Below are positions 6,843-23,877 of a stretch of 32,651 nt of DNA, piece after piece (position 1 is the stretch's first letter; each line of letters begins with the position of its first letter). The notes under the pieces were generated by a model. The model was not told the DNA's origin. It saw only the letters and a program-made list of their open reading frames with translations, and did not search any database. Location: the sequence record DRR723986_4861; one strand, 5' to 3'. The position numbers were made by a program, and so were the translations under genes.

Positions 6843-8210
6843 TCACTCGTCAGCCGACAAACGCAAACGGTCCATTTCTACAAAGCTACTGTATGGCGAC
6901 GTGACAACACGCTCACCAACTTCCAGCCCATCAAGCACTTCGATAAAGCGGGAATTGCGCCGCCCTAGGCGCACTGTGCGCTTTACAGCCTGCGAACCAT
7001 CGTCGGTAACAACAAACACCCAGTTTCCGCCGGTGTCTTGGTAAAATGCACCGTTAGGAATAAGCGCCGCAGACGTAGCATCACCCAAAGTCAGTTTGGT
7101 TTGCAGGGTTTGACCACGACGAATGTCATCAGGCTGCTGGTCGGCAAACACAAGGTCTACTTCAAACTGGCCATTGGTCACTTGTGGGTAAATTTTCGAA
7201 ATGGTCATGCGGTAGCTGGTGCCGCCGCGCTCAAACACCGCCTCCTGGCCAATGTCTACACGCCCTAAATAAAACTCATCAATGTTGGCTGTAAGCTTGT
7301 AATTATCCGGATCATCTATTTGACCAAGCCTGTTTCCGCGTGGAATATTCTCGCCGATTTCAACATTGAAACCAGACAGCTTACCGTCAACCGGCGCGCG
7401 CACATTTAGATTATCAAGGTTTTTTCTGGCGACCACGAGGCTATCCTCAAGTCGCACTGCGGCTTCGCGTAAAAACTTCAATTGGCTTTCCTGAAGGCGC
7501 GCATCGGTCGCTTGACTTTCAAGCGTTAATTCCCGGCGATTAATGTTATATTCCAGTTCATCTTCAGTATCTTCAAGCTGACGCATAGGAATAGCATTCG
7601 TTTTCACCAACTCACGTTCGCGCTCCACTCTGCGCGTCAAAGTTCTGATCTGATAATTAAAGTCCACCAAATTACGCTTATGAGCCAAACGGTTTTGCTC
7701 AAGCTGCAATTCCTGCGACCTCATATTATTGAGCTGCTCGGTCACCCGGGTTTCGTTGGCTGTAAAACTAACTTGCAGATTGCTGTTGGAAAGCTCAACA
7801 ATCAGGTCACCCTTCTTGAGCATAGCGCCGTCCTCAACCAGAATGCGTTCCACCCGGCCGCCTTCAATTGCATCAAGAAACAGCGTTTTCAACGGTGTCA
7901 CCCGACCACGCACCGGAATAAAGTCTTCAAATGTGCCTTCGCTCACCGTCGAAATCACGATGCGGCTTTCATTCACTCTGAACGTGCGCCCACCGGCAGC
8001 GTCATCTACCAGCATCCAAATTACCGCAGCAACAGCCAGTACAGCCACGACAATACCCGCGGTTTTCCAATGGTTCTTTTTCTTTGCTACTTTTCTATCC
8101 ATGCCTGCGCCAGATGCAGCCCTGTCGCTCATAGACTTATTATTTGCAGACGTTTTACCGCCGTGCATGGGAATAGCATTTCCAGATGTTTGTTTCTTTT
8201 CCATTGTCAC
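6843..8210 (-). CDS. Efflux periplasmic adaptor (membrane fusion protein, HlyD/MacA family)
   Basis: Single N-terminal TM, lipoyl-like segments (GGRVERILVEDG, VRAPVDG), long coiled coil, C-terminal EVLDGLEVGERVV. Exact start uncertain (several in-frame starts). Confidence 0.9.
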   Translation of the reverse strand: MTMEKKQTSGNAIPMHGGKTSANNKSMSDRAASGAGMDRKVAKKKNHWKTAGIVVAVLAVAAVIWMLVDDAAGGRTFRVNESRIVISTVSEGTFEDFIPVRGRVTPLKTLFLDAIEGGRVERILVEDGAMLKKGDLIVELSNSNLQVSFTANETRVTEQLNNMRSQELQLEQNRLAHKRNLVDFNYQIRTLTRRVERERELVKTNAIPMRQLEDTEDELEYNINRRELTLESQATDARLQESQLKFLREAAVRLEDSLVVARKNLDNLNVRAPVDGKLSGFNVEIGENIPRGNRLGQIDDPDNYKLTANIDEFYLGRVDIGQEAVFERGGTSYRMTISKIYPQVTNGQFEVDLVFADQQPDDIRRGQTLQTKLTLGDATSAALIPNGAFYQDTGGNWVFVVTDDGSQAVKRTVRLGRRNSRFIEVLDGLEVGERVVTSPYSSFVEMDRLRLSADE

Positions 8211-8309
8211 TCAGTCTTCCTCTTACCAGCCTTCATTGCGCAAAACCGTGAAAATTTCTGGTTTTTCTATACCGTTTCACCGCCAGCTGTTGTTATTGCC
8301 GTTAATATC

Positions 8310-8325
8310 AGCAAGGGCTATGCCA
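8310..8325 (-). promoter_or_regulatory. Sigma-54 (-24/-12) promoter of the exporter operon
   Basis: Minus strand reads TGGCATAGCCCTTGCT, matching TGGCAY-N5-TTGCW with exact GG-N10-GC spacing. It is ~100 nt upstream of the adaptor gene and next to a sigma-54 activator gene. Confidence 0.88.
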
Positions 8326-8330
8326 ACAAC

Positions 8331-8343
8331 TAACATATTGAAT
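8331..8343 (-). promoter_or_regulatory. Putative IHF binding site
   Basis: Minus strand ATTCAATATGTTA, one mismatch to WATCAA-N4-TTR, within an AT-rich tract between the sigma-54 promoter and the putative enhancer boxes. Confidence 0.55.
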
Positions 8344-8364
8344 TATATTAATTTTCATAATAAA

Positions 8365-8425
8365 TGTTCGAAAACGAACATATTTTTCTGTACGATATTG
8401 AACACCTTGTGTACGGTTTCGAACA
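8365..8425. promoter_or_regulatory. Three tandem TGT-N10-ACA boxes, putative upstream activator sequences for the adjacent enhancer-binding protein
   Basis: TGTTCGAAAACGAACA (8365-8380, perfect 6-bp arms), TGTACGATATTGAACA (8389-8404), TGTACGGTTTCGAACA (8410-8425). Confidence 0.75.
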
Positions 8426-8452
8426 AACCCGCCTAAGCAACAAGGATGCCCC

Positions 8453-9880
8453 ATGCTTCAGCAAACTGGCTCAATTTTAATTGTAGATGATGACGAGGAT
8501 ATCCTCGTTGCGGTGAAGCTTTTGCTTAAACGCCACTTTGATACAGTGATCACCTGCAGCAATCCGGAAGATATTGCGGCGCTTATGAAAGCGCATTCAT
8601 TTGATGCAATTCTATTGGACATGAATTTTGGTCCGGGCGAGTCGTCTGGTCAGCAAGGATTTCATTGGTTGGGGCAAATTATGACAATCGACCCGCAAGC
8701 GGTTGTCATCATGATAACGGCGCACGGCGGCGTGAATGTTGCCGTTGAAGCCATGAAACAAGGTGCAACAGATTTTGTTGCCAAGCCCTGGCAAAATGAA
8801 AAGTTGGTCGCAACCCTGTCTTCAAGTGTGAAGTTGCGGCGCAGCAGAACGGAAGCCAACCGGCTAAAGAAAACCAACAAAACGCTAGCGGCAGTAGCGA
8901 GCGAGCCAAAGCAACCCATTCTTGGCAATAGCCCAGCAATTGCAGAAGTGCTGTCTATTATCGCACGAACAGCACCAACAGACGCAAACGTGCTGGTTTT
9001 GGGCGAAAACGGCACCGGGAAAGAACTGGTTGCCCGCGAGCTGCACCGACAGTCCAATCGTGCAGAGAATATATTCATGGCAGTTGATCTGGGAGCGGTA
9101 CCTGAATCGTTGTTCGAATCTGAATTATTCGGCCACAAAAAAGGCGCTTTCACTGACGCGCGGGAAGACCGGGTCGGCCGATTGCAGGCTGCCGATGGCG
9201 GCACGTTATTTCTGGACGAAATCGGCAACCTACCGCTGCATTTGCAAGCAAAGTTATTAACTGTTTTGGAGGCGCGGCAAGTGGTGCCGGTGGGATCAGG
9301 CACCCCTATCGACATTGATATTCGTGTTGTTGCGGCCACAAATGTTGATCGCAATAAGTTAAAAGACGAGTCGGTTTTTCGGCAGGATTTGCTATTTCGG
9401 CTAAACACTGTGGAGGTACACGTGCCGCCGCTGCGCGATAGACAACAGGACATCCCCGAGATTGCACGCCACTACGGTGACCTCTATTGCCGGAAATACG
9501 ACAAACCAGCCATGGATTTTTCACCAGAGGCACTTTCGGCAATAACCCACTACAATTGGCCCGGCAACGTTAGGGCGCTTCGGCACGCCATTGAACGCGC
9601 GGTTATTTTGTCTGATGGCACGGCCTTCCGGGCACAGGATTTTCAGATGGAGGGTCCTTCTAATGCCAGTTCAGCATCCGGTAGTGCCGCCCCGCCAGCA
9701 ACAGGGGAAAGCGGCGACCTTGGCACCGCAGACAGCGATGACCTTAATCTAGAACGCCTGGAAAAAAGCGCTATTGCCGGCGCGCTGAAAAAACACCGCT
9801 ACAATATCAGCCATGCCGCAAAAGAATTGGGTATAACCCGGGCAGCCCTCTACCGCAGGATGGAAAAACATGGGCTTTAA
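8453..9880 (+). CDS. Sigma-54-dependent response regulator (NtrC family: receiver, AAA+, Fis-type HTH)
   Basis: Receiver ILIVDDD...LLDMNF, Walker A GENGTGKE, ESELFGH-x2-GAFTDA, Walker B LFLDEI, WPGNVR, HTH AAKELGITRAALYRR. Confidence 0.95.
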   Translation: MLQQTGSILIVDDDEDILVAVKLLLKRHFDTVITCSNPEDIAALMKAHSFDAILLDMNFGPGESSGQQGFHWLGQIMTIDPQAVVIMITAHGGVNVAVEAMKQGATDFVAKPWQNEKLVATLSSSVKLRRSRTEANRLKKTNKTLAAVASEPKQPILGNSPAIAEVLSIIARTAPTDANVLVLGENGTGKELVARELHRQSNRAENIFMAVDLGAVPESLFESELFGHKKGAFTDAREDRVGRLQAADGGTLFLDEIGNLPLHLQAKLLTVLEARQVVPVGSGTPIDIDIRVVAATNVDRNKLKDESVFRQDLLFRLNTVEVHVPPLRDRQQDIPEIARHYGDLYCRKYDKPAMDFSPEALSAITHYNWPGNVRALRHAIERAVILSDGTAFRAQDFQMEGPSNASSASGSAAPPATGESGDLGTADSDDLNLERLEKSAIAGALKKHRYNISHAAKELGITRAALYRRMEKHGL

Positions 9881-11222
9881 ACGCTTCAGCGCCCTGCTGG
9901 CCGGGCGGCTTGTTTTGATCATGCTGACGCTTATGGGAATAAGCTATCTTATTTCTGTGCCCGGCTATCACGCCGCTACATTTCTCACCTTTTGCGTGTT
10001 GGTGTTCCTTACGCTCGAGGTGTTTCAATTTGTCAAGCGAACCAACGCAGAAGTTTCCCGTTTTCTGGACGCCGCAAGATATGCAGATTTTAGCCAACGG
10101 TTTCGCATGCATGATTTGGGCGCTGGATTCGGAGAATTGGGCGAAACTTTCACCGATATTTTAAGCCGGTTTCAAGAAGTGCGTGCAGCAAAAGAAAAAG
10201 AGCTGCGCCACCTGAAGGCTCTGATAGAACATGTGCCGGTTCCGCTCTTGTCGCTTGAGGCAGACGGCGCGCTTAACATATGGAACAATGCCGCCCGCCG
10301 GCTGTTTGGGTCGGCCTCAGCAACCCATGTAAGCCAGCTGGCACAGTTTGGGACAGACTTTCAAAAAGATGTAACTTCAATAGAACCAGGTGAACGGCGG
10401 CTGGTTGCATTTGATGCGGACGGAATTGAACAACAAATGATGCTGGCGGCATCAAAAATAATTATCGACGGTAAACCGGAAAAACTTTTCAGCCTTCAAA
10501 ATATCCAGTCAGAGCTTGACCTGGCGCAGTTGCAAGCGTGGCAAGATCTGGTGAGCGTTTTAACGCATGAAATCATGAATTCAATTACGCCGGTTGCCTC
10601 GCTGGCGAAAACCGCTGTTGATCTGGTGGACGATGCGGCGACAAAAGTGAAAAACAACCCAGAAGTTGTCGCGGAACTGGGGGATGTGAAAGACGCGGTT
10701 AATACAGTGGCAAGACGGTCAGATAAATTAAGCCAATTTGTCTCCAGTTACCGCAGTTTGACCCGGCTGCCACCGCCTGAACGGACTTTGGTTAGCCTGC
10801 AGGAATTCTTTGAAAACATGGCTCGGTTATACCGTGAAGCATGGCAGTCCAAGGGTATAACGCTTCACACATCTGTTGAACCTGCGGCGCTAGATGTATC
10901 TGCCGACAGTGACATGCTGGAACAGATCGTTATCAATATGCTTAAAAATGCTGAACAAGCGTTATCAAATAAGGATACTGGCAATATTTGGCTTTTGGCG
11001 CGGCTGAATAGGCGTGGCCGAGTGGCGATAGAAATTGCAGATGATGGCCCCGGCATTCCCGCCGATATTGCCAAGCAGATATTTGTGCCATTTTTTACCA
11101 CAAAGCGAGCCGGTAGCGGGGTTGGTCTTGCCCTCACGCGCCAAGTTATGATTGCCCACGGCGGGGCAGTAAGCCTTTCGAAGCGTGAGGGCGGCGGCGC
11201 GGTTTTTTCGCTAACATTTTAG
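9870..11222 (+). CDS. Sensor histidine kinase (two close TM helices, PAS-like region, HisKA, HATPase)
   Basis: H-box LTHEIMNS, N-box NMLKNA, DDGPGI, PFFTTK, GSGVGL. Overlaps the regulator gene end by 11 nt. Confidence 0.94.
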   Translation: MGFKRFSALLAGRLVLIMLTLMGISYLISVPGYHAATFLTFCVLVFLTLEVFQFVKRTNAEVSRFLDAARYADFSQRFRMHDLGAGFGELGETFTDILSRFQEVRAAKEKELRHLKALIEHVPVPLLSLEADGALNIWNNAARRLFGSASATHVSQLAQFGTDFQKDVTSIEPGERRLVAFDADGIEQQMMLAASKIIIDGKPEKLFSLQNIQSELDLAQLQAWQDLVSVLTHEIMNSITPVASLAKTAVDLVDDAATKVKNNPEVVAELGDVKDAVNTVARRSDKLSQFVSSYRSLTRLPPPERTLVSLQEFFENMARLYREAWQSKGITLHTSVEPAALDVSADSDMLEQIVINMLKNAEQALSNKDTGNIWLLARLNRRGRVAIEIADDGPGIPADIAKQIFVPFFTTKRAGSGVGLALTRQVMIAHGGAVSLSKREGGGAVFSLTF

Positions 11223-15154: not shown

Positions 15155-16882
15155 TTATTTCATTAACGCTTCACATACATCAATCACCAGAACATTTCGG
15201 TCGCGGCCTATGCTGGCGGCACTCTTAACGGTTGAAAAGGCAACGGTGCAACCGTCGACACTCACATCTGCTTGGTCCGGATAGCCCTCCCATATTTTTT
15301 TAGGCTCATCGTCCGATGACCAGCCAAACCAATAAAGCCCTCCCGGCCTTTTTCTCACCGGCGTATAACGGCTTTTCATCAGGCGCACGATGCCCGCCTT
15401 TGTGATCAGCGTTTGGGTTTCATCCCGTTCGTTATGAAGCAAAGGCAGCGGCGTTTCCTCGATAGCGGGAGCGGAACCGTCCGCCGTTAGACCATCCAGT
15501 TTCAGCAATGAAACGCTCAGCAAATGACGGTTTATTTCTTTGCCCTCTGGCGTACTGTAAGCAACCGGGCATGCCACCATTTGGACCGCCTTCAAAAACG
15601 GTACAAACTTCATACACTTTAACGGATATTGCTTTTCTGAAAGCTTGGTGCGGGTCGCTGTTTCCGGGGCATAATGAAATGTGCCTTCTTGTGTCGCCTC
15701 AATAAACCCAAGCCCTTCGCCCAAGGCCAAAGTTTTTGCGGGGTTATAGCTTACACTTTCAGCATCAAGAGATCGACGCCATTCACATGTTAACGAGCTT
15801 TGCCTCCAGGGGGCAAAGGTCATGTCGGAAACCCGCGCCCGCTGGAAGCCCCCAACGGATACACTATTGCTCTTCCCCGCACCACCATACTGGTGGGCAT
15901 ATTGCTGTAATGGCTCCCCCAAGAGGCCCGCAGTGTATCGCAGTGTTTTTGGTGTCGAAGGGTCTTGCTTTCGCCGCTCACCCGCACCGGACGGCGCTCG
16001 TGTTCGGTAAGAAATAAAATCACCCACCATACAAACGGAAGGACTGCCCACATCTTCAGCCAACGTTGTCAGTCTTTTGCCATTCCATACAAGCAGCCGA
16101 TCAGGCTTTCTTGGTACAGACTCGGTTAAAATCAACCCTTTTGTACTGGACCACAAAACGTTGGTGATACGCTGCTCAATGACAATGCTTTTGGCCGCAA
16201 GGGCCGGTTTCAAGGCTGGTATAGGGTCTTCCATGGGTTGCTTTAACAACTGGAAAGTTTCGGCAATCTCTTGCATCAGCTCGCTATATCTAATTTCGAC
16301 TTCACTTTCCGTCGCCAACCAAGAAAGCGTGTTTTCAGGAACGCTCGATCCCTTCGCCCGTATACCGCGCGAACATATCCACCAGGGAGAAACCTTGCTG
16401 CTGCGCAAGTCAGACCGTTTGAGAACTTCCTCGCCTACTTCACCAGCAACATTTGGGTTTTCACGGATATATTTTGAAACTGTTCTTGTCCGCACAGGCA
16501 AATAAGCCACAGCGTCTGAAGCAGATGTGTCTGCGCACAATGCGGCGTCTAACCCTGCCCGAATATAACCAAGCCAGTACCACTCTAATGCCATTCGAAC
16601 ATCAGCGGAAAAAGTGCGCTCAGCCAAATCGAATAGATAATATGCTGGCAATTCATTGTAGCGCGCGGCCAACTCTTCGCGCAGGGGAATATTTTCAGGC
16701 GGCACTGTTTCAAGGCTGCGTTCCAACCGTTTACGATCGTCAGACAGCGATAAATCTTGCGATGTAGAAAAAACCCGCTCAACCGCCGGAAACTTTTTCA
16801 AAGCGGCAGCGTTTTCGTCTTTTAGGTCAGCCAGAGAAGAAAAGCCCACTCCAATAGAAATAAACAGTGGTATCAACCGCAT
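15155..16882 (-). CDS. Secreted hypothetical protein (helical N-terminal domain, beta-rich C-terminal domain)
   Basis: Long ORF filling the gap. ATG 16882 follows GGAG and begins a signal-like sequence MRLIPLFISIGVGFSSLA. No family recognised. Confidence 0.75.
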   Translation of the reverse strand: MRLIPLFISIGVGFSSLADLKDENAAALKKFPAVERVFSTSQDLSLSDDRKRLERSLETVPPENIPLREELAARYNELPAYYLFDLAERTFSADVRMALEWYWLGYIRAGLDAALCADTSASDAVAYLPVRTRTVSKYIRENPNVAGEVGEEVLKRSDLRSSKVSPWWICSRGIRAKGSSVPENTLSWLATESEVEIRYSELMQEIAETFQLLKQPMEDPIPALKPALAAKSIVIEQRITNVLWSSTKGLILTESVPRKPDRLLVWNGKRLTTLAEDVGSPSVCMVGDFISYRTRAPSGAGERRKQDPSTPKTLRYTAGLLGEPLQQYAHQYGGAGKSNSVSVGGFQRARVSDMTFAPWRQSSLTCEWRRSLDAESVSYNPAKTLALGEGLGFIEATQEGTFHYAPETATRTKLSEKQYPLKCMKFVPFLKAVQMVACPVAYSTPEGKEINRHLLSVSLLKLDGLTADGSAPAIEETPLPLLHNERDETQTLITKAGIVRLMKSRYTPVRKRPGGLYWFGWSSDDEPKKIWEGYPDQADVSVDGCTVAFSTVKSAASIGRDRNVLVIDVCEALMK

Positions 16883-17025
16883 AAGTTGCTCCAGCGCCCC
16901 CGCGTCAACTATAGGGGTATCCGCTTTGGCCAGCAACCATGGACATTGCATAATGCCCAAAGCTAGTTATTGGCCTGCCCAGTCTAATGCGTTAAGACTG
17001 GCATATTCGATACGGCGGGAAAGCA

Positions 17026-18567
17026 ATGGTCTTATTCAAAAAACCAAATTCAGATGAAAGCAACACAGCAGGCAAAGCCATTTCTTCAAGTGACAACACA
17101 CCGTCAACGCTTGATCTTGAGGTTGCCGCTGCTTTTGTTGAAATGGGAACACGGGATGACAGTACACCGGTTAAACCGGGGCTGGCCAAAGAAACCCTAA
17201 CCTCGCTGCTATACCAACAAGCTGACTTGTTAGCCAACAATGGGCAGGAGGAGCAATCGTCCACGCTGTTTGCATTTGCGATGCATTTATCAGGCAATGC
17301 GTTGGAAAACGCCCATGTTGAAACTGCCTTTGAGCGCCTCGCCGCGCAAGCGCATTATTTGATGGCCAATGGCCGTTTTGCCCTCGCCGCAAAAATTTAT
17401 GAGACGCTGGTTGCCGCAGCGCCCGAAAATCACGATGTGCACCTTGATTTAGCCGGTGTATATTACGCCTTGAAAAAGCACGACGAAGCACGAAAGCTTT
17501 TAAGCAACCTTTACTCAAAATACCCTATTGAATTCGAACCTGCTGAAGACAGCGACGACACCAAAGGCACATTGCTGCGAGTTTCAGGATTCGATAAAAC
17601 CTATTTTAAAATGGGTAAACGAGCGAGTGGCCTTTTTCATCGCTTTCGCCGGGGTGGCCACTTTATGCTAACCCACCTGCTGGATACCGACGCTTATGAC
17701 GTTTATTCCTACACCATAGCGGATGATAATATTAACCAGAAAACACCTGAATTACGCCACGGCTTACTCCTAAACACCATCGCCGATGCTGATATTGAAT
17801 ACCACTCGCTCAAGTCCCTTGAAACCTATGTAGAAAAACACCTGAGTGGGCCAATTATTAATCATCCAACGAACGTTCTGGCCACCACACGCGATAATAA
17901 TTATCAGCGCTTAAATGCGCTTGATGGCATCCGGTTTCCCAAAACTGAGCGCTTTGAGGCATACGGCAAACCGGCGGAGACTATAGCTGACAACATTAAA
18001 GCCGCCGGGTTTGCGCCGCCTTTTATCATTCGGGAAACCGGCACCCACACCGCTGTCACCACCGCGCTGATATCTGAACAGTCCGAGCTAGATGCCTATT
18101 TAAATAACGTCACTGGTGAAAGTCTTTATGTGATCGAATTTATTGAGAATGCGTCACCTGAAGGTCACTATACCAAAATGCGCTTTTTTGCGATTGACGG
18201 AAAACTATACCCGGTTGTCCGCCACGTTGACCAGGTGTGGAATGTGCACGGCGGTAACCGCAAAACTTTCATGAACGATCATCCATGGATGATAGAAAAA
18301 GAAAAACAGTTCTTGCGCGATCCCGCATCAGTGATTGGCGACCAAACATACGCCCTGTTACAAAAGCTTCCAGGTCTTATTGGCCTTGAGTTTTTCGGAA
18401 TTGATTTCACCTTACTCGACAACGGCGATGTTTTGATATTCGAGCTTAACCCTGCCATGCGGCATAGCTTTAACCATGCGAAAAACTCGCCTTATATGCA
18501 ACCGCATCTGGAAGCTATCTCGTCCGCTTTTCAAGCTATGATCGACCGAAAAATTGTCGCCTTATAG
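17026..18567 (+). CDS. TPR-repeat protein with C-terminal ATP-grasp-like (RimK/GshB-type) domain
   Basis: TPR-like helices (AAKIYETLVAAAPENHDVHLDLAGVYYALKKHDEARKLL). ATP-grasp-like segments IINHP, PFIIR-ETGTH, YVIEFIE, KMRFFAIDG, FFGIDF...VLIFELNP. Confidence 0.75.
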   Translation: MVLFKKPNSDESNTAGKAISSSDNTPSTLDLEVAAAFVEMGTRDDSTPVKPGLAKETLTSLLYQQADLLANNGQEEQSSTLFAFAMHLSGNALENAHVETAFERLAAQAHYLMANGRFALAAKIYETLVAAAPENHDVHLDLAGVYYALKKHDEARKLLSNLYSKYPIEFEPAEDSDDTKGTLLRVSGFDKTYFKMGKRASGLFHRFRRGGHFMLTHLLDTDAYDVYSYTIADDNINQKTPELRHGLLLNTIADADIEYHSLKSLETYVEKHLSGPIINHPTNVLATTRDNNYQRLNALDGIRFPKTERFEAYGKPAETIADNIKAAGFAPPFIIRETGTHTAVTTALISEQSELDAYLNNVTGESLYVIEFIENASPEGHYTKMRFFAIDGKLYPVVRHVDQVWNVHGGNRKTFMNDHPWMIEKEKQFLRDPASVIGDQTYALLQKLPGLIGLEFFGIDFTLLDNGDVLIFELNPAMRHSFNHAKNSPYMQPHLEAISSAFQAMIDRKIVAL

Positions 18568-18574
18568 GGCTCGC

Positions 18575-19789
18575 CTAGATATTTTGTACCTTGCTCAGTG
18601 CCGCCACCCCTTTGTCAAAAACCTCTTCACTTGAGCATAAAATAAAGCGCATACAATCTGACGATGAAGGGCCATATACATGGCCTGGCATGGCAACAAT
18701 TTTCTGTTCAGATAACAAATAGTCTGCAGCTTTAGCCCCTGCGCCTTCACCTTGAACTGGCGTCGGCAAATTGGCCGCAAGGCCTAATGCGCTGGGAAAG
18801 GCAAACATGCCGCCTTGGGGCACTCTGGGCCATGAAAAGCCTTTGTTCGGGGTCATAACATCCGCCAAAATATTCGCCCGCTTTTGCAACATGGCCGCAA
18901 TGTCGTCCATCCATGGGTCTGCGGCCACATCTGAAATCATCCGCAAGGCAAACCGTTCGGCAAAGCTATTTACCCCTAAATACATAAAGTCATGCAGTTT
19001 TGCCGCCAGATCGATAACTGCCGGCGGCGCGCATAGCCAACCAATACGCAGGCCAGGTACGCCGTATTTTTTTGAAAAACTATTGATGAGAATTGAGCGG
19101 TTCTCCAGGCCCGCGACACACCGTGCAGGAATGTGCGGCCGGGCAAACGCCATACTGTCATAGACCTCATCATGAATAACCCACATGTCATTTTCCGTAG
19201 CAACGGCTGCAAGTGCATTGAAGTCAACTTGGCTGGCAACATAGCCGCTGGGGTTTTCTGGAGAATTTACAATCAATGCCCGTGCCGTTTTAGCGGCTTC
19301 AGATAGCGCACCCAGGCCTGCATATTCATGAATGCCGCATTGGCGCGGCAAACAAACCGGGTTACGGCCCAGTGTGCGAATCGCACGCTGATAAAGCATA
19401 TAGGTGGGGTCCGTGATCAGAATATCGTCCCCTGTTGAGCTGGTGACAAGCGCCGCCAAGCCAATAGCTTCCACACCGCCGTGGGTGATGAGAATTTCAC
19501 GCTCGGGGTCAACCGTCAGGCCGTACCGGCGGTTATAATAGTCTGCTATCGCCGCCCTGAGCTCAAGCATACCGCGGCTTTGCTCGTATGATTTGCTGCA
19601 ACTCAGAAAAGCATCCCAGTTCAGGTCATGGTCTTCTATAGTTTTGCGCACACCCTCGTGCGGGCCAAAGTCAGGCTCCCCAAAAGCCAGATTAATAGCG
19701 CCTGGAATGTCACGCGCTTTTGCTGCGGTTGCTTTGGTGGCGTAACCATCAAGGTTAAGTAAGTCTTCACTTAAGGGAGGGGTGAGCAT
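18575..19789 (-). CDS. PLP-dependent aminotransferase, class I/II (aspartate aminotransferase superfamily)
   Basis: INLAFGEPDF, GMLELRAAIA, NSPENPSG, HDEVY, PLP-lysine motif SFSKKYGVPGLRIGW. GAGG RBS. Confidence 0.93.
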   Translation of the reverse strand: MLTPPLSEDLLNLDGYATKATAAKARDIPGAINLAFGEPDFGPHEGVRKTIEDHDLNWDAFLSCSKSYEQSRGMLELRAAIADYYNRRYGLTVDPEREILITHGGVEAIGLAALVTSSTGDDILITDPTYMLYQRAIRTLGRNPVCLPRQCGIHEYAGLGALSEAAKTARALIVNSPENPSGYVASQVDFNALAAVATENDMWVIHDEVYDSMAFARPHIPARCVAGLENRSILINSFSKKYGVPGLRIGWLCAPPAVIDLAAKLHDFMYLGVNSFAERFALRMISDVAADPWMDDIAAMLQKRANILADVMTPNKGFSWPRVPQGGMFAFPSALGLAANLPTPVQGEGAGAKAADYLLSEQKIVAMPGHVYGPSSSDCMRFILCSSEEVFDKGVAALSKVQNI

Positions 19790-19876
19790 TGGGGGTAACC
19801 TCGTTTCAAATCAGGCCATTTTTCGCGTGTGCCAGCGCAAACCATATTACAGGGCGATGGCTGTATAAATGTATAG

Positions 19877-19908
19877 TGTTTGTTTCTTTTACGCTGTTTG
19901 TTTCTTTT
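19877..19908. repeat. Perfect 14-bp direct repeat TGTTTGTTTCTTTT (18-bp period) in the divergent aminotransferase/pepM intergenic region
   Basis: Copies at 19877-19890 and 19895-19908. Confidence 0.8.
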
Positions 19909-20008
19909 GCAATGACATCATTAGCGTGACTGGGCTAGAAAGGTCACGCATAATTGCGCACGCAATATATAAGCAACGCTCAATAGACCAATTCATGGAT
20001 GATTCCTT

Positions 20009-20926
20009 TTGAATTTAAGACAAGAAAAAGTACCTGTCGCAACACCCGCTTCCAGCAAATTGCGGGCGCTTATGTGCGAACCCGATATGTCCTTCATTAT
20101 GGAGGCACACAATGCTTTGGCGGCCCAATTGGCAGAGCGCGCGGGGTTTAAAGCTATTTGGGCGTCTAGCCTAACCCTTTCCGCATCCATGGGTTTGCGG
20201 GACGCCAATGAATTGACTTGGAATGAAGTGCTGGATTTGGTTGAGCCCATTGTGGACTTTGTTGACACGCCTGTTCTGTTGGACGCGGACAGTGGTTATG
20301 GGGACTTTAATATTTTCAGCCGCTTTGTGCGGAAAGCTGAAACACGAGGCATTGCAGGTGTTTGCATTGAAGACAAAGAGTTTCCCAAGCGAAATTCTTT
20401 TGCCAAAACCAGACACGCTTTGACAGACATTGATGATTTCACCGCAAAAATTCGGGCGGCAAAAGATGCGCTAACTGACCCGGACTTTTGCATCGTTGCC
20501 AGAACAGAGGCCTTTGTTGCCGGCGCGGGCCTGGAGGAAGCACTAGAACGGGCGGCATGTTATGAGCGCGCAGGCGCAGACGCGCTTTTCGTTCACTCAA
20601 AACAGTCAACAGCCATTGAAATTGAAGCCTTTACCCAAAAGTGGCAGGGATCAATTCCGCTGGTTATTGCCCCGACAACCTATTCGCAAACCCCCGCAGA
20701 GGCCTTCAATGGCATGGGCATCTCCGCTATAATTTGGGCGAACCACGGTTTGCGCGCAGCGGTGCGGGCCATGGAAACAGCTTACCAGCATATTCATGAA
20801 GCCAGGTCTGTTGCTGGGCTTGAGGCAAGCATTTCTTCGGTGGAAGACCTATTGTCCCTGACTAAAACCGAAGAACTTTTGAAAACAGAACAAAAATATG
20901 CGCCGCCCGCCCCTGAAACTGCGTAA
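20009..20926 (+). CDS. pepM: Phosphoenolpyruvate phosphomutase (PepM/AepX)
   Basis: Diagnostic EDK-x5-NS motif (EDKEFPKRNS), plus MEAHN, DADSGYG, ARTEA and IWANH. Directly upstream of ppd. TTG start uncertain. Confidence 0.95.
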   Translation: MNLRQEKVPVATPASSKLRALMCEPDMSFIMEAHNALAAQLAERAGFKAIWASSLTLSASMGLRDANELTWNEVLDLVEPIVDFVDTPVLLDADSGYGDFNIFSRFVRKAETRGIAGVCIEDKEFPKRNSFAKTRHALTDIDDFTAKIRAAKDALTDPDFCIVARTEAFVAGAGLEEALERAACYERAGADALFVHSKQSTAIEIEAFTQKWQGSIPLVIAPTTYSQTPAEAFNGMGISAIIWANHGLRAAVRAMETAYQHIHEARSVAGLEASISSVEDLLSLTKTEELLKTEQKYAPPAPETA

Positions 20927-20932
20927 CACCCT

Positions 20933-22141
20933 ATGTTGGACCCTCACGAATTTATCTCCGCACTAGACAACCACGGCATCTCTTTTTATGCCGGTGTGCC
21001 TTGTTCATTTTTAAAAGAGCCCATGAGCATTCTGGCCAGCCGTCCAAGTTATGTGGGTGCCGCCATTGAAACCGACGCCGCAGCGCTATGTGCCGGGGCA
21101 TGGCTCGCAGGTGAAAAAACCGCCGTTTTCTGCCAAAATTCCGGGCTGGGCAATTTAATAAGCCCCTTAAGCTCCCTGAACGCACCTTTTAAAATTCCAA
21201 CGCTTATGGTGATCGGTTGGCGTGGCAAGCCGGGCAATATTGACGAACCCCAACACAGACTAATGGGCGCGGTGACCCAGCAAATGTTGGCGCAAATGGG
21301 GGTTGAAGCTTTTGAGCTGCCAACAACCCGCGCCGAAGCAATAGAAACAATTGATCAAGCCATGACGGCTTTGAATGGGCAGAAAAAGTCTGCGGCGTTG
21401 CTAGTGGGACCGAAAACATTTGCCTCTGGCACAATGGGTTTTGACGTCAACGTTTCAAAAAGTCAGAGCAAAAACCCGGAAAATTATGAGAAAACTCCTA
21501 ATAATTCTCATGAAACTCAGGGAAATTGTGAAAAAAAACCCGAGAATCTTATAAATACCGCCCAAATGCCAACGCGCCATGAACTTTTAAAGGCAATTTT
21601 AAAACACACACCAAACAACGCAGCGATCATTGCCACTACCGGCAAATGTGGCCGAGAGTTGTGTGCCATTGAAGACAGAAAGCAACATTTTTACATGGTC
21701 GGCTCCATGGGATCAGCCAGTGCCATCGGGCTGGGGGCCGCACTTAATACCGAACGGCCAATTCTTGTTTTAGACGGGGACGGAGCGGCGCTTATGCGCT
21801 TGGGAACCATGGCAACAATCGGTCGAATACAGCCGTCAAATCTGGTTCATATGATCATCGATAACCAAGCGCATGATTCTACTGGCGGTCAGCCAACAGG
21901 CTCTGAGTGCATCAACTTTTCTGCCGTAGCCAGCGCCTGTGGTTACCTATCAGTTGCAAACTGCAACAACATACAAACCGCTATGAAAGCTCTTGAGCGC
22001 TGCCTTTTATCTGCGGGTCCGCATTTGGTGCATATTCGCATTAAACCTGGCTCTGCCTCTAACCTTGGCAGGCCAACGGTGTCACCGGCTGAGGTTGCTG
22101 AGCGGTTTCGTGCATTTCTAACCAGCCCCCTTTCCGCGTAA
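20933..22141 (+). CDS. ppd: Phosphonopyruvate decarboxylase (Ppd/AepY), TPP-dependent
   Basis: GVPCSFL, QNSGLGN, WRG-x-PG-x2-DEPQH-x2-MG, FYMVGSMG, TPP motif DGDGAALM, NQAHDSTGGQPT. Starts 6 nt after pepM. Confidence 0.95.
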   Translation: MLDPHEFISALDNHGISFYAGVPCSFLKEPMSILASRPSYVGAAIETDAAALCAGAWLAGEKTAVFCQNSGLGNLISPLSSLNAPFKIPTLMVIGWRGKPGNIDEPQHRLMGAVTQQMLAQMGVEAFELPTTRAEAIETIDQAMTALNGQKKSAALLVGPKTFASGTMGFDVNVSKSQSKNPENYEKTPNNSHETQGNCEKKPENLINTAQMPTRHELLKAILKHTPNNAAIIATTGKCGRELCAIEDRKQHFYMVGSMGSASAIGLGAALNTERPILVLDGDGAALMRLGTMATIGRIQPSNLVHMIIDNQAHDSTGGQPTGSECINFSAVASACGYLSVANCNNIQTAMKALERCLLSAGPHLVHIRIKPGSASNLGRPTVSPAEVAERFRAFLTSPLSA

Positions 22142-22159
22142 GCAAAACTTTGGTCTTTG

Positions 22160-22214
22160 GGCTTGTTGTCCAGGCTTTGATGTCTGGGCTTTGATATCTG
22201 GGGTTTGGTGTTTT
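22160..22214. repeat. Degenerate ~14-bp tandem repeat immediately downstream of ppd
   Basis: GGCTTGTTGTCCA / GGCTTTGATGTCTG / GGCTTTGATATCTG / GGGTTTGGTGTTTT. Confidence 0.7.
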
Positions 22215-22319
22215 GTCCCGGCTATCCGTGCGTTTGGTCGCATAGCACTTGCCCAACCGCACCGCCGGTGCAACCGTGGCTCCCAGGGGTGCAGGTTTAC
22301 CTTAGGGGAGTTAAATTTA

Positions 22320-23078
22320 ATGCACAAACTACTGGCGCTTGCCTTCATTACCTGGGCTGCTTTGAGCACAAGCGCGTTAGCGCAAAACGGCACCCTCTCA
22401 AGCAACAAGCGCATCGAAAGCGAAGCCCTTGGCTATGCCCTGCAATACCGGGTTTACACCCCGGCAGGCGTTGAAAACCTGCAAAATCTGCCCACAATTT
22501 ATGTTACCGACGGCCAATGGTACATCGACAATGGCCGCATGGTGAAAGTCTTAAACCGCGAAATTAAGAAAGGCCGAATCAAGCCGATAATTGTGGTTTT
22601 TGTTGATAATCGTGACCCGGATAATCTGCGCAATAATCGCAGAAACAGTCAGTTTTTTTGCAATATAGATTACGCCAAATTTTATGCTCGTGACCTTGTA
22701 CCAACGATCACGGACCAATATCCGGTTAGCCTCAAAAGGGAAGAAAGGGTGATCCTTGGCTTGTCTTTTGGCGGGCTAAATGCGGCTTGTTTTGGTCTAA
22801 CCTTACATCCGCTGTTCGGCGGCGTAGCCATGCAGTCACCCGCCATACACCCCGTGCCGAACATTGTACCACTGTATGAAAGTGAAGAAAAACGGCCGAT
22901 CAAGATATTCTTCAGCATCGGCCGCAAAAACGACAACACAGCCGTTGGCAGGCGTTTTAAGGATGTACTAGAGAAGAAGGGCTACGAAATGCTGTATAAA
23001 GAGGTGCCATACGGCCACAATTGGCAAAACTGGAAACCACTTCTGGATGATGTGCTGGTTTACTTCTTTAAACCTTAA
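22320..23078 (+). CDS. Secreted esterase, alpha/beta hydrolase (Fes/enterochelin esterase-like)
   Basis: ATG 22320 after GGGGAG, signal peptide ending ALA, YRVYTP, YVTDG, nucleophile GLSFGG, GHNWQNW. The longer 22191 start in the track runs through the repeat region and is unlikely. Confidence 0.88.
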   Translation: MHKLLALAFITWAALSTSALAQNGTLSSNKRIESEALGYALQYRVYTPAGVENLQNLPTIYVTDGQWYIDNGRMVKVLNREIKKGRIKPIIVVFVDNRDPDNLRNNRRNSQFFCNIDYAKFYARDLVPTITDQYPVSLKREERVILGLSFGGLNAACFGLTLHPLFGGVAMQSPAIHPVPNIVPLYESEEKRPIKIFFSIGRKNDNTAVGRRFKDVLEKKGYEMLYKEVPYGHNWQNWKPLLDDVLVYFFKP

Positions 23079-23120
23079 ACAAACAAATATCCGTCATTAG
23101 AAGCAACACACAATCAGTCG

Positions 23121-23480
23121 CTACTCCAAGTGGGCCGAGAGAGCTGCTTTAGTTGCTTTCAGCATTTTTAGGAACTTTCTTGCCTGCGCCATACGGTCTT
23201 CAATTTCCGCTATTTTCTGTTGTAAAAACTGGTCCGCATCAAAAAAGTCTGTCGACGGGCCTTCTATCCGTTCGATCAACTGGGCAAATTCAGCAATAGA
23301 AAAACCTGCACTTTGCGCCTGTTTAATCATGGCGAGTCGCTCCAGCGTTTCTTCTGGGTAATCTCGGTATTTGTTTGTGTCACCTTCGCTGGGGGCAGAC
23401 TGGATCAATCTGTTGCGCTCATAAAACCTCACAGTATCAGGCCCTATGCCAGATTGTTTTACCAATTCTCCAATACGCAC
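23121..23480 (-). CDS. MerR family transcriptional regulator (short, Cys-free)
   Basis: MRIGELVKQSGI-x2-DTVRFYE, YRDY, AGFSIAE, C-terminal coiled coil. Confidence 0.92.
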   Translation of the reverse strand: MRIGELVKQSGIGPDTVRFYERNRLIQSAPSEGDTNKYRDYPEETLERLAMIKQAQSAGFSIAEFAQLIERIEGPSTDFFDADQFLQQKIAEIEDRMAQARKFLKMLKATKAALSAHLE

Positions 23481-23501
23481 GAATGCTCACCTGTTTTACA
23501 A

Positions 23502-23526
23502 ACCATTGACAATGGTCCATTGTTAA
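23502..23526. promoter_or_regulatory. Overlapping palindromes around a perfect TTGACA, candidate MerR operator
   Basis: ACCATTG-A-CAATGGT (23502-23516) and TTGACAATGG-T-CCATTGTTAA (23506-23526, one mismatch) in the merR/zinc-ribbon divergent gap. Confidence 0.55.
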
Positions 23527-23598
23527 CATAACGATAATAAAAATCAACCACGGTGGTTGGCAAAAAAAGCGCCGGGTAGATTTATCGGGAGAACGATA

Positions 23599-23877
23599 AT
23601 GGCTAACATTTGCCAAAGCTGCGGCATGCCCCTCAATAAAGACCCGCAAGGTGGTGGAACAAACGAAGACGGCACCAAAAGCGACACCTTTTGCTCGCTT
23701 TGTTATCATGACGGGGCCTTTATCCACCCAAACTTCAGTGTATCTGAAATGCAGGAACATTGTATCGAACAATTAAAAGCAAAAGGAATGCCCACCTTTA
23801 TGGGCTGGTTATTTACCCGCGGTATTCCTAACCTTGGTCGGTGGAAAACCAATGTGCCCAACGAAACCCGACATTAA
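23599..23877 (+). CDS. Zinc-ribbon domain protein (Zn_ribbon_2-like)
   Basis: CQSCGMPL...GTNEDG...FCSLCY-x-DG and IPNLGRWK. ATG 23599 after GGGAG. Confidence 0.87.
   Translation: MANICQSCGMPLNKDPQGGGTNEDGTKSDTFCSLCYHDGAFIHPNFSVSEMQEHCIEQLKAKGMPTFMGWLFTRGIPNLGRWKTNVPNETRH

Follow-up and report, generated by a model that had tools for sequence, protein, structure and literature searches.

When the genes for the first two steps of phosphonate synthesis, phosphoenolpyruvate (PEP) phosphomutase (PepM, or Ppm) and phosphonopyruvate decarboxylase (Ppd), are accompanied by an aminotransferase that does not belong to the class of the canonical PhnW/AepZ, the question arises which reaction this enzyme carries out. 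Such a case is found in the sequence record DRR723986_4861, a stretch of 32,651 nucleotides that was analysed as a whole and is called here the window, in which a minus-strand open reading frame (ORF) with an ATG start, located at 18575–19789 exactly as in a preliminary description of the locus, encodes a class I/II pyridoxal phosphate (PLP)-dependent aminotransferase of 404 aa. The enzyme has intact catalytic residues, belongs to a phosphonate-linked clade and lies beside pepM and ppd; it is probably a non-orthologous phosphonoacetaldehyde transaminase making 2-aminoethylphosphonate (AEP). On the basis of the sequence, it is most likely that both the reaction and the pathway are well known and that the enzyme of the third step, which comes from an uncharacterised family, is unexpected. 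In this route PepM would convert PEP to phosphonopyruvate, Ppd would decarboxylate phosphonopyruvate irreversibly to phosphonoacetaldehyde, and the aminotransferase would move the amino group of an amino acid to phosphonoacetaldehyde with the formation of AEP; gene context points to both phosphonoacetaldehyde as the substrate and the biosynthetic direction.

The Aminotransferase and Its Conserved Residues

The protein matches Aminotran_1_2 (PF00155) over residues 32–397 with an E value of 5.6e-49 (167.7 bits against a gathering threshold of 19.7), the Pfam scan gave no match to the class V domain PF00266, and no PhnW model is among its 25 best NCBIfam matches, so that the earlier assignment to class I/II and not to class V stands. 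The motifs on which that assignment was based are NPSG (179–182), DEVY (207–210), SFSK (237–240) and LRIGW (247–251), the last two being separated by six residues (KYGVPG) and not by five as had been stated. With NCBIfam, all scores are under the model cut-offs: the highest is that of GntC (213 bits, cut-off 415), followed by generic "PLP-dependent aminotransferase" models; VioD gives 129 bits, far under its cut-off, and the aspartate aminotransferase (AspAT) models asp_aminotase_Arch and PRK06107 give 144 and 115.5 bits, respectively. The public annotation of the homologues is the generic "pyridoxal phosphate-dependent aminotransferase".

An AlphaFold2 model built on an alignment of 30 family members (mean pLDDT 90.7) resembles solved class I aminotransferases with TM-scores of 0.80–0.86 at identities not above 27%. 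Six residues, K240, N179, D207, Y210, R248, and R381, are invariant across the 30 members and occupy matching columns in the alignment with AspAT-like proteins; following the AspAT literature, K240 is taken here to be the Schiff-base lysine of the SxSK motif, N179, D207, Y210, and R248 to bind PLP, and R381 to be the arginine that holds the alpha-carboxylate. This invariance of the catalytic and PLP-binding residues makes it most likely that the enzyme is active.

The fold and the catalytic residues are shared with the aspartate, aromatic, and kynurenine aminotransferases of subgroup I-beta/gamma (1GD9, 2O0R, 1BJW, and 6F5V); in contrast, the family has HGGVEA where AspAT-like proteins have the GAKQ segment, PENP where they have PSNP/PNNP, and residues of its own in several pocket motifs. 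In particular, Y16, K19, H103, E107, E178, Y183, K241, H266, D267, and R322 are family-specific invariant polar residues. The lysine of GAKQ presumably binds the dicarboxylic donor, and because HGGVEA takes its place and the family lacks that lysine, a dicarboxylic donor held in the manner of AspAT looks unlikely.

Association with Ppd and Gene Fusions

In the window and in eight related loci (L001–L006, L008, and L017), the aminotransferase gene is part of a four-gene module, in which the gene of a protein with tetratricopeptide repeats (TPR) and an ATP-grasp-fold domain is convergent with it and the pepM-ppd pair is divergent; only the end of the TPR gene is present in L001, and L006 is from a strain of Kordiimonas aquimaris. 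In the window, PepM scores 334.4 bits with TIGR02320 (cut-off 319.55) and Ppd 401 bits with TIGR03297 (cut-off 312.5), and the neighbourhood described earlier is therefore confirmed. PepM contains EDKEFPKRNS, corresponding to EDKxxxxxNS, which is given as the Ppm-specific motif in the available text of PMC6697681.

Homologues graded from 88% to about 45% identity were found by a search of 5.8 billion proteins; the named sources are Kordiimonas, Roseateles, Ramlibacter, Burkholderia ubonensis, Spartinivicinus, and Actinoplanes, and further ones are Aeromonas sobria, Vibrio cholerae, Xenorhabdus bovienii, and Azospirillum. A scan of genome_contigs with the single protein gave eight loci with a homologue, a further 21 family loci (L017–L037; L018 is the same contig as L005) came from a scan of metagenomes with the family alignment, together with 22 generic aminotransferases used as an outgroup, and tblastn on plasmids gave two records (L060 and L061). 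The phosphonate context extends to the close homologues, pepM and ppd adjoining the homologue in all eight genome_contigs loci. Adjacency was counted in the core-clade loci whose sequence extends for 850 bp or more on the ppd side (n = 19), and Ppd directly adjoins the aminotransferase in 16 of them (L001–L008, L017, L019, L020 with the C-terminal part only, L021, L025, L026, L028, and L060); the three loci in which it does not (L023, L027, and L029) are all short contigs. The adjacency with pepM-ppd spans Alphaproteobacteria, Enterobacteriaceae, an Azospirillum plasmid, and metagenome contigs at 44–78% identity.

The two functions are also found in single polypeptides: eight proteins of 780–810 aa (P0122–P0129) have an N-terminal Ppd (TPP_enzyme N and C domains) and a C-terminal aminotransferase part 46–49% identical to the window protein, and L007 encodes a fusion of this kind of 780 aa. 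The existence of these fusions accounts for the label "phosphonopyruvate decarboxylase" that a few homologues carry from one source. In another homologue (P0101, 693 aa), the aminotransferase is fused to a PhyH dioxygenase. The tie of the family to Ppd, by adjacency in 16/19 loci and by eight fusions, argues for AEP formation, as does the logic of the window module, which supplies phosphonopyruvate and phosphonoacetaldehyde as the sole keto-phosphonates and in which Ppd would use up the first of them.

These data also bear on the simplest alternative, a housekeeping amino-acid aminotransferase merely neighbouring pepM-ppd, which would agree with the generic public annotation and with the position of the gene on the strand opposite to pepM-ppd. 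Such a role is very improbable and close to refuted, since the adjacency is retained across distant taxa despite the sequence divergence, Ppd fusions exist, no NCBIfam housekeeping model comes near its cut-off, and the genes flanking the four-gene module vary even among the Kordiimonas loci.

In one contig of a metagenome-assembled genome (MAG), L005/L018 (8001–9208 and 9242–10724), the aminotransferase gene is split over two frames, with high-scoring segment pairs covering residues 1–93 and 95–404, the TPR/ATP-grasp gene is in three pieces, and an esterase gene is duplicated; the gene splits are either frameshifts or assembly errors.

Relation to Phosphonoalanine-Type Aminotransferases

PnaA of the Streptomyces phosphonoalamide pathway and PalB of Variovorax phosphonoalanine catabolism are PF00155 proteins like the window enzyme and share with it a phosphonate context beside pepM. 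A phylogeny against such enzymes had been suggested in the preliminary description, and a maximum-likelihood tree of 74 rows was calculated (IQ-TREE, LG+G4, 1000 ultrafast bootstraps), in which the phosphonoalanine type is represented by proxies (L107, L108, L110, and L081) set by gene context only, in place of the authentic PnaA and PalB sequences. The family corresponds to 54 rows on one side of a 100/98 branch and is apart from these proxies as well as from the generic aminotransferases. From the outermost inwards, it includes L035, which is without phosphonate context, the L031-type group (37–38% identity), the "AT2" paralogue group, and a core of 47 rows (86/93). In the core, the window subclade has 10 rows (100/100), comprising the window, two alphaproteobacterial MAG loci, a metagenome contig, and Kordiimonas spp., and is sister (93/69) to the L019–L024 group; the other large group is composed of the Ppd-adjacent "AT1" copies, with all eight Ppd fusions and the PhyH fusion.

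Three of the proxies derive from a pepM survey of 401 Pseudomonadota genomes, in which TIGR02320 gave 20 over-cut-off places in 18 genomes. Only one of the 20 carries the aminotransferase family, which is therefore a minority route. In the 19 pepM regions that were classified, ppd is accompanied by a PhnW-like class V enzyme in six and by no visible aminotransferase in nine, pepM is alone in one, and three (L107, L108, and L110) have no ppd and an aminotransferase directly beside pepM; the window's family occurs in none of the 19, and the Kordiimonas genome G004 is the only one of the survey that carries it. The aminotransferases of L107, L108, and L110 score 292–312 bits with asp_aminotase_Arch and 259–289 bits with PRK06107 and are 27–29% identical to the window protein. 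The fourth proxy, L081, has a phosphonopyruvate-hydrolase-like (palA-like) protein (TIGR02321 367 bits against a cut-off of 374.4, the N-terminus being trimmed by the chosen start) and an AspAT-like enzyme (PRK06107 528 bits) that is 25% identical to the window protein. Overall, the four score 292–373 bits with asp_aminotase_Arch and 259–528 bits with PRK06107, against 144 and 115.5 for the window protein, and all of them lie across the 100/98 branch, among the generic aminotransferases. Judged by these context-defined proxies, the window enzyme is separate from the phosphonoalanine-type aminotransferases.

The comparison is relevant to the other possibility raised in the preliminary description, a phosphonoalanine branch, in which the enzyme would transaminate phosphonopyruvate in competition with Ppd, two products would be made, and phosphonoalanine would feed the ATP-grasp ligase. 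The invariance of R381, if this is the alpha-carboxylate-binding arginine, and the ATP-grasp-fold protein of the window module are in agreement with it. According to the available text of PMC11867202, PnaA, a PLP aminotransferase of the AspAT superfamily, forms phosphonoalanine from phosphonopyruvate and Asp, as had been stated earlier, and works alongside ATP-grasp ligases; moreover, the accessible part of Li and Horsman (PMC8942020) ties PF00155 in pepM neighbourhoods to phosphonoalanine. Nevertheless, this branch is improbable: Ppd adjoins or is fused to the family, whereas the phosphonoalanine-type neighbourhoods are without Ppd, the four proxies are AspAT-like, only 25–29% identical and beyond the 100/98 branch, and their GAKQ is HGGVEA in the family. 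Therefore, of the two roles originally considered, the replacement of the AEP transaminase is favoured, by the ppd linkage, the fusions, the relatives' genomes without PhnW and the cluster L019 (both described below), and the phosphonoalanine branch is disfavoured.

Two side observations concern loci of this tree. In L107, L108, and L110 (regions of G292, G069, and G301), a weak CDP-alcohol phosphatidyltransferase match is located within about 1–2 kb after the pepM-aminotransferase pair, an arrangement that hints at phosphonoalanine-derived lipids. L061 (NZ_CP039224.1 5651–7464) is a Piscirickettsia salmonis plasmid with a 35%-identical aminotransferase directly after a 2-oxoglutarate (2OG)-Fe(II) oxygenase; no pepM or ppd is annotated nearby, and the branch in the tree is long.

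Gene Clusters across the Family

In the sister group of the window subclade, L019 contains pepM, a split ppd, and the aminotransferase gene in company with genes for an exosortase, a nucleotidyltransferase, a PhyH dioxygenase, and a CDP-alcohol phosphatidyltransferase. The locus extends 10 kb past the aminotransferase and contains no class V enzyme; the window's family thus provides the sole aminotransferase of a phosphonolipid-type cluster. This is a further argument for AEP formation, since the sister-group clusters otherwise have the usual genes for AEP lipids, with no aminotransferase except that of the family. In L027, the aminotransferase gene is accompanied by genes for a nucleotidyltransferase, a CDP-alcohol transferase, and a protein of the ATP-grasp type.

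L019 has the same parts list as the "Burkholderiales_CDP-OH"/Group 1 phosphonolipid neighbourhoods, with a class I/II instead of a class V aminotransferase; in the part of Li and Horsman (2022, PMC8942020) that was accessible, the "Burkholderiales_CDP-OH" core is described with a class V AEP transaminase (AEPT) and predicted 1-hydroxy-AEP lipids. Searches of the pepM sample with the L019 and L027 proteins gave only weak matches for a class V version of this architecture, and the parallel therefore relies on the available description in PMC8942020.

A different organisation is found in L007, L025, L026, L028, and L060, in which pepM, ppd, AT1, PhyH, a PhnW-like class V gene, a FemAB/GNAT-like gene, a gene for a hypothetical protein, and AT2 are present. 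In L007 (5949–17183), AT1 is fused to Ppd, and a nucleotidyltransferase and AT3 follow AT2; L060 is an Azospirillum thermophilum plasmid (NZ_CP029358.1 36551–61720), in which PhyH and the class V enzyme are annotated as one coding sequence of 580 aa. The class V enzyme of these clusters scores 325–332 bits with PRK13479 (cut-off 296) and is just below the TIGR03301 cut-off. The cluster of L007, L025, and L060 probably corresponds to the neighbourhood of the Salmonella/Serratia type to which Li and Horsman refer. The fusions Ppd-aminotransferase, aminotransferase-PhyH, and PhyH-class V track the gene order ppd, AT1, PhyH, class V, and this order, from which alone the succession is read, fits a pathway in which AT1 would make AEP, PhyH would hydroxylate it, and the class V enzyme would act later. 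Finally, L031 and L037 have pepM, a true PhnW (above the TIGR03301, TIGR02326, and PRK13479 cut-offs), ppd, a PhyH-like protein, and a distant aminotransferase.

Canonical PhnW and the Assignment of the Substrate

In the genomes of five relatives, no protein is above the cut-off of TIGR03301 (PhnW-AepZ), the best scores being 203–220 bits against 360.8, and the two best class V candidates are also under the TIGR02326 and PRK13479 cut-offs; in the window and in the Kordiimonas-type loci, no class V match was found. The lack of a recognisable PhnW in these five genomes argues for AEP formation by the class I/II enzyme.

Several points weigh against this assignment. The genome-wide check regards the five relatives, the window itself being covered within its 32,651 nt; moreover, each of the five genomes has, on another contig, one generic class V aminotransferase, to which the TIGR03301 scores of about 203–220 bits belong and which could be a moonlighting AEPT. 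Outside the window subclade, a PhnW-like class V enzyme is present in eight of 21 family loci (L007, L025, L026, L028, L060, L031, L033, and L037), and because of this coexistence the family need not be AEP-forming in those clusters. A PhyH dioxygenase lies beside the aminotransferase in 15 of the same 21 loci, and the typical substrate of the family could consequently be a hydroxylated 2-oxo- or 2-aminoethylphosphonate. As regards the fusions, those with Ppd are found in precisely the cluster type (L007) that also bears the PhnW-like gene, and they need not mean consecutive steps, since in Ppm-PntC fusions the partners are not consecutive-step enzymes, as reported in the accessible part of PMC6697681. 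Lastly, in L020, which is otherwise like L019, pepM and the first half of ppd were not detected upstream (7000–10000); this locus may be a decayed or rearranged copy of the L019-type cluster.

Some of these points are those expected if the enzyme acted on another phosphonate, such as a hydroxylated intermediate (1-hydroxy-2-oxoethylphosphonate to or from 1-hydroxy-AEP) or the product of the ATP-grasp protein, or if it were a lyase or decarboxylase. In addition to the PhyH and PhnW-like neighbours, the AT2 and AT3 paralogues of L007, L025, and L060 indicate that the family diversified inside single clusters, the best NCBIfam matches include non-transaminase PLP enzymes (GntC and VioD, both far under cut-off), and a specialised pocket is suggested by the ten polar residues that are invariant in, and specific to, the family. 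For the window enzyme this explanation is nonetheless doubtful, as the complete set of transaminase catalytic residues is retained and no PhyH match was found in the window or in the eight Kordiimonas-type loci (the flanks being shorter in L001 and L017), nor a dioxygenase among the larger window ORFs scanned, so that no hydroxylated substrate would be made locally. The presence of PhnW-like enzymes in some clusters, and of a true PhnW in the L031 type, suggests that some family members may handle 1-hydroxy-2-oxoethylphosphonate or 1-hydroxy-AEP, and "transaminases of 2-oxoethyl/2-aminoethylphosphonates" is a cautious description of the family as a whole.

Comparison with Known Systems

With PhnW/AepZ (class V; TIGR03301, TIGR02326, and PF00266), the window enzyme has in common the proposed reaction, the PLP chemistry, and the third step after PepM and Ppd; they belong to unrelated classes, PF00266 and PF00155, respectively, and the likeness is therefore a functional analogy and not a membership. 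Both types coexist in some clusters. In comparison to the canonical Ppm-Ppd-AEPT pathway, the window has Ppm, with its EDKxxxxxNS motif, and Ppd, and the phosphonate-linked aminotransferase is of the other class, its substrate being assigned by context. PnaA and PalB differ in their Ppd-free neighbourhoods and AspAT-like sequences, the window subclade being always Ppd-linked (a comparison made through the context-defined proxies). The pna cluster, as far as described in the available text of PMC11867202, and the window module both have a neighbouring ATP-grasp enzyme. In contrast to "Burkholderiales_CDP-OH", as presented in the accessible text, the window module has no dioxygenase, nucleotidyltransferase, or lipid genes and has the TPR/ATP-grasp protein instead.

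The literature searched (full text, the supplementary figures of PMC8942020 being outside the scope) describes neither a class I/II AEP-forming transaminase nor a Ppd-aminotransferase fusion. In the available text of PMC8942020, AEPT is classified by PF00266 only and PF00155 is treated as PalB-like; genome mining of this kind assigns AEP by class V and reads PF00155 beside pepM as phosphonoalanine-forming. If the clade makes AEP, clusters like that of the window are left unclassified or misread, and the Ppd-aminotransferase fusions, now named "phosphonopyruvate decarboxylase", would be bifunctional AEP synthases; the three-step pathway would offer a clean case of non-orthologous displacement.

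The Neighbouring TPR/ATP-Grasp Protein

At normal thresholds, Pfam finds only TPR repeats (residues 105–167) in the protein encoded next to the aminotransferase; the ATP-grasp matches are faint (E 0.14 for the window protein and 0.038 for the L006 orthologue), and the sequence of the protein matched nothing in the PDB. The predicted model (pLDDT 90.5) is matched by Foldseek to D-Ala-D-Ala ligases, LysX/ArgX, and RimK with E values from 8e-11 to 5e-8 and probability 1.00. K384, D460, E473, and N475 are invariant across 37 TPR/ATP-grasp homologues and are presumed to correspond to the conserved ATP-grasp lysine and to the E-x-N metal site. By the fold of the model and by these residues, the C-terminal domain is a predicted ATP-grasp domain.

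The gene adjoins the aminotransferase in every locus of the window subclade (Kordiimonas-type) having the flank, and its product belongs to a larger family of marine Alphaproteobacteria. A general link of this family with phosphonates was considered and rejected, since none of 11 places with distant homologues, in 10 other alphaproteobacterial genomes, has pepM, ppd, or the aminotransferase within about 9 kb. The protein may, speculatively, couple the amine of AEP to a carboxylate; as the distant homologues are not phosphonate-linked, this AEP-ligating role is only a hypothesis. A broader scheme, tentative and unlikely to hold as a whole, would regard the phosphonate-dedicated class I clade as a second, independently evolved solution for the transamination of 2-oxoethyl/2-aminoethylphosphonates, often fused to Ppd, with the marine alphaproteobacterial four-gene module using the TPR/ATP-grasp ligase for an undescribed N-acyl-AEP amide and not for a lipid or glycan decoration.

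Other Features of the Window

The coordinates of the module and of the adjacent esterase gene are collected in Table 1.

Table 1. Features of the phosphonate locus in the window.
Feature	Coordinates	Strand	Basis
TPR protein with C-terminal ATP-grasp-fold domain, 513 aa	17026..18567	+	TPR Pfam matches, Foldseek; role inferred
Class I/II PLP aminotransferase, 404 aa; proposed phosphonoacetaldehyde:amino-acid transaminase (AEP-forming)	18575..19789	-	PF00155, invariant residues, model, clade
Divergent intergenic spacer between aminotransferase gene and pepM, 219 bp	19790..20008	.	ORF coordinates
PEP phosphomutase (PepM/Ppm)	20009..20926	+	TIGR02320, PF13714, EDKEFPKRNS motif
Phosphonopyruvate decarboxylase (Ppd)	20933..22141	+	TIGR03297
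PF00756 esterase, accessory	22191..23078	+	PF00756, E 4.8e-24

The start of pepM is TTG and uncertain, the alignments of the homologues beginning at about residues 4–29. In the spacer from which pepM-ppd and the aminotransferase gene are divergently transcribed, a promoter-like site is present on the plus strand (19926–19954), and a terminator-like hairpin (22156–22189) lies between ppd and the esterase gene; over 16900–23600, the promoter-like sites are 10 against 7.4 ± 2.6 in shuffled sequences, with no excess, and the terminator scan gave a similar result. The gene of the PF00756 (enterochelin-esterase-like) esterase is found only in L001, L005 (two copies), L008, and L017 and is absent from the Kordiimonas loci L002–L004 and L006. 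A scan of the larger ORFs of the window gave no aminotransferase besides this one, and it gave no dioxygenase, no nucleotidyltransferase, and no transferase for lipids or glycans; the remaining genes encode a MacB/FtsX-type ABC transporter, a two-component system, regulators, hydrolases, and peptidases. An ORF of 601 aa on the minus strand (15155–16960) has no Pfam or NCBIfam match, and only L005 and L008 have a counterpart (57% identity), located upstream of their TPR gene.

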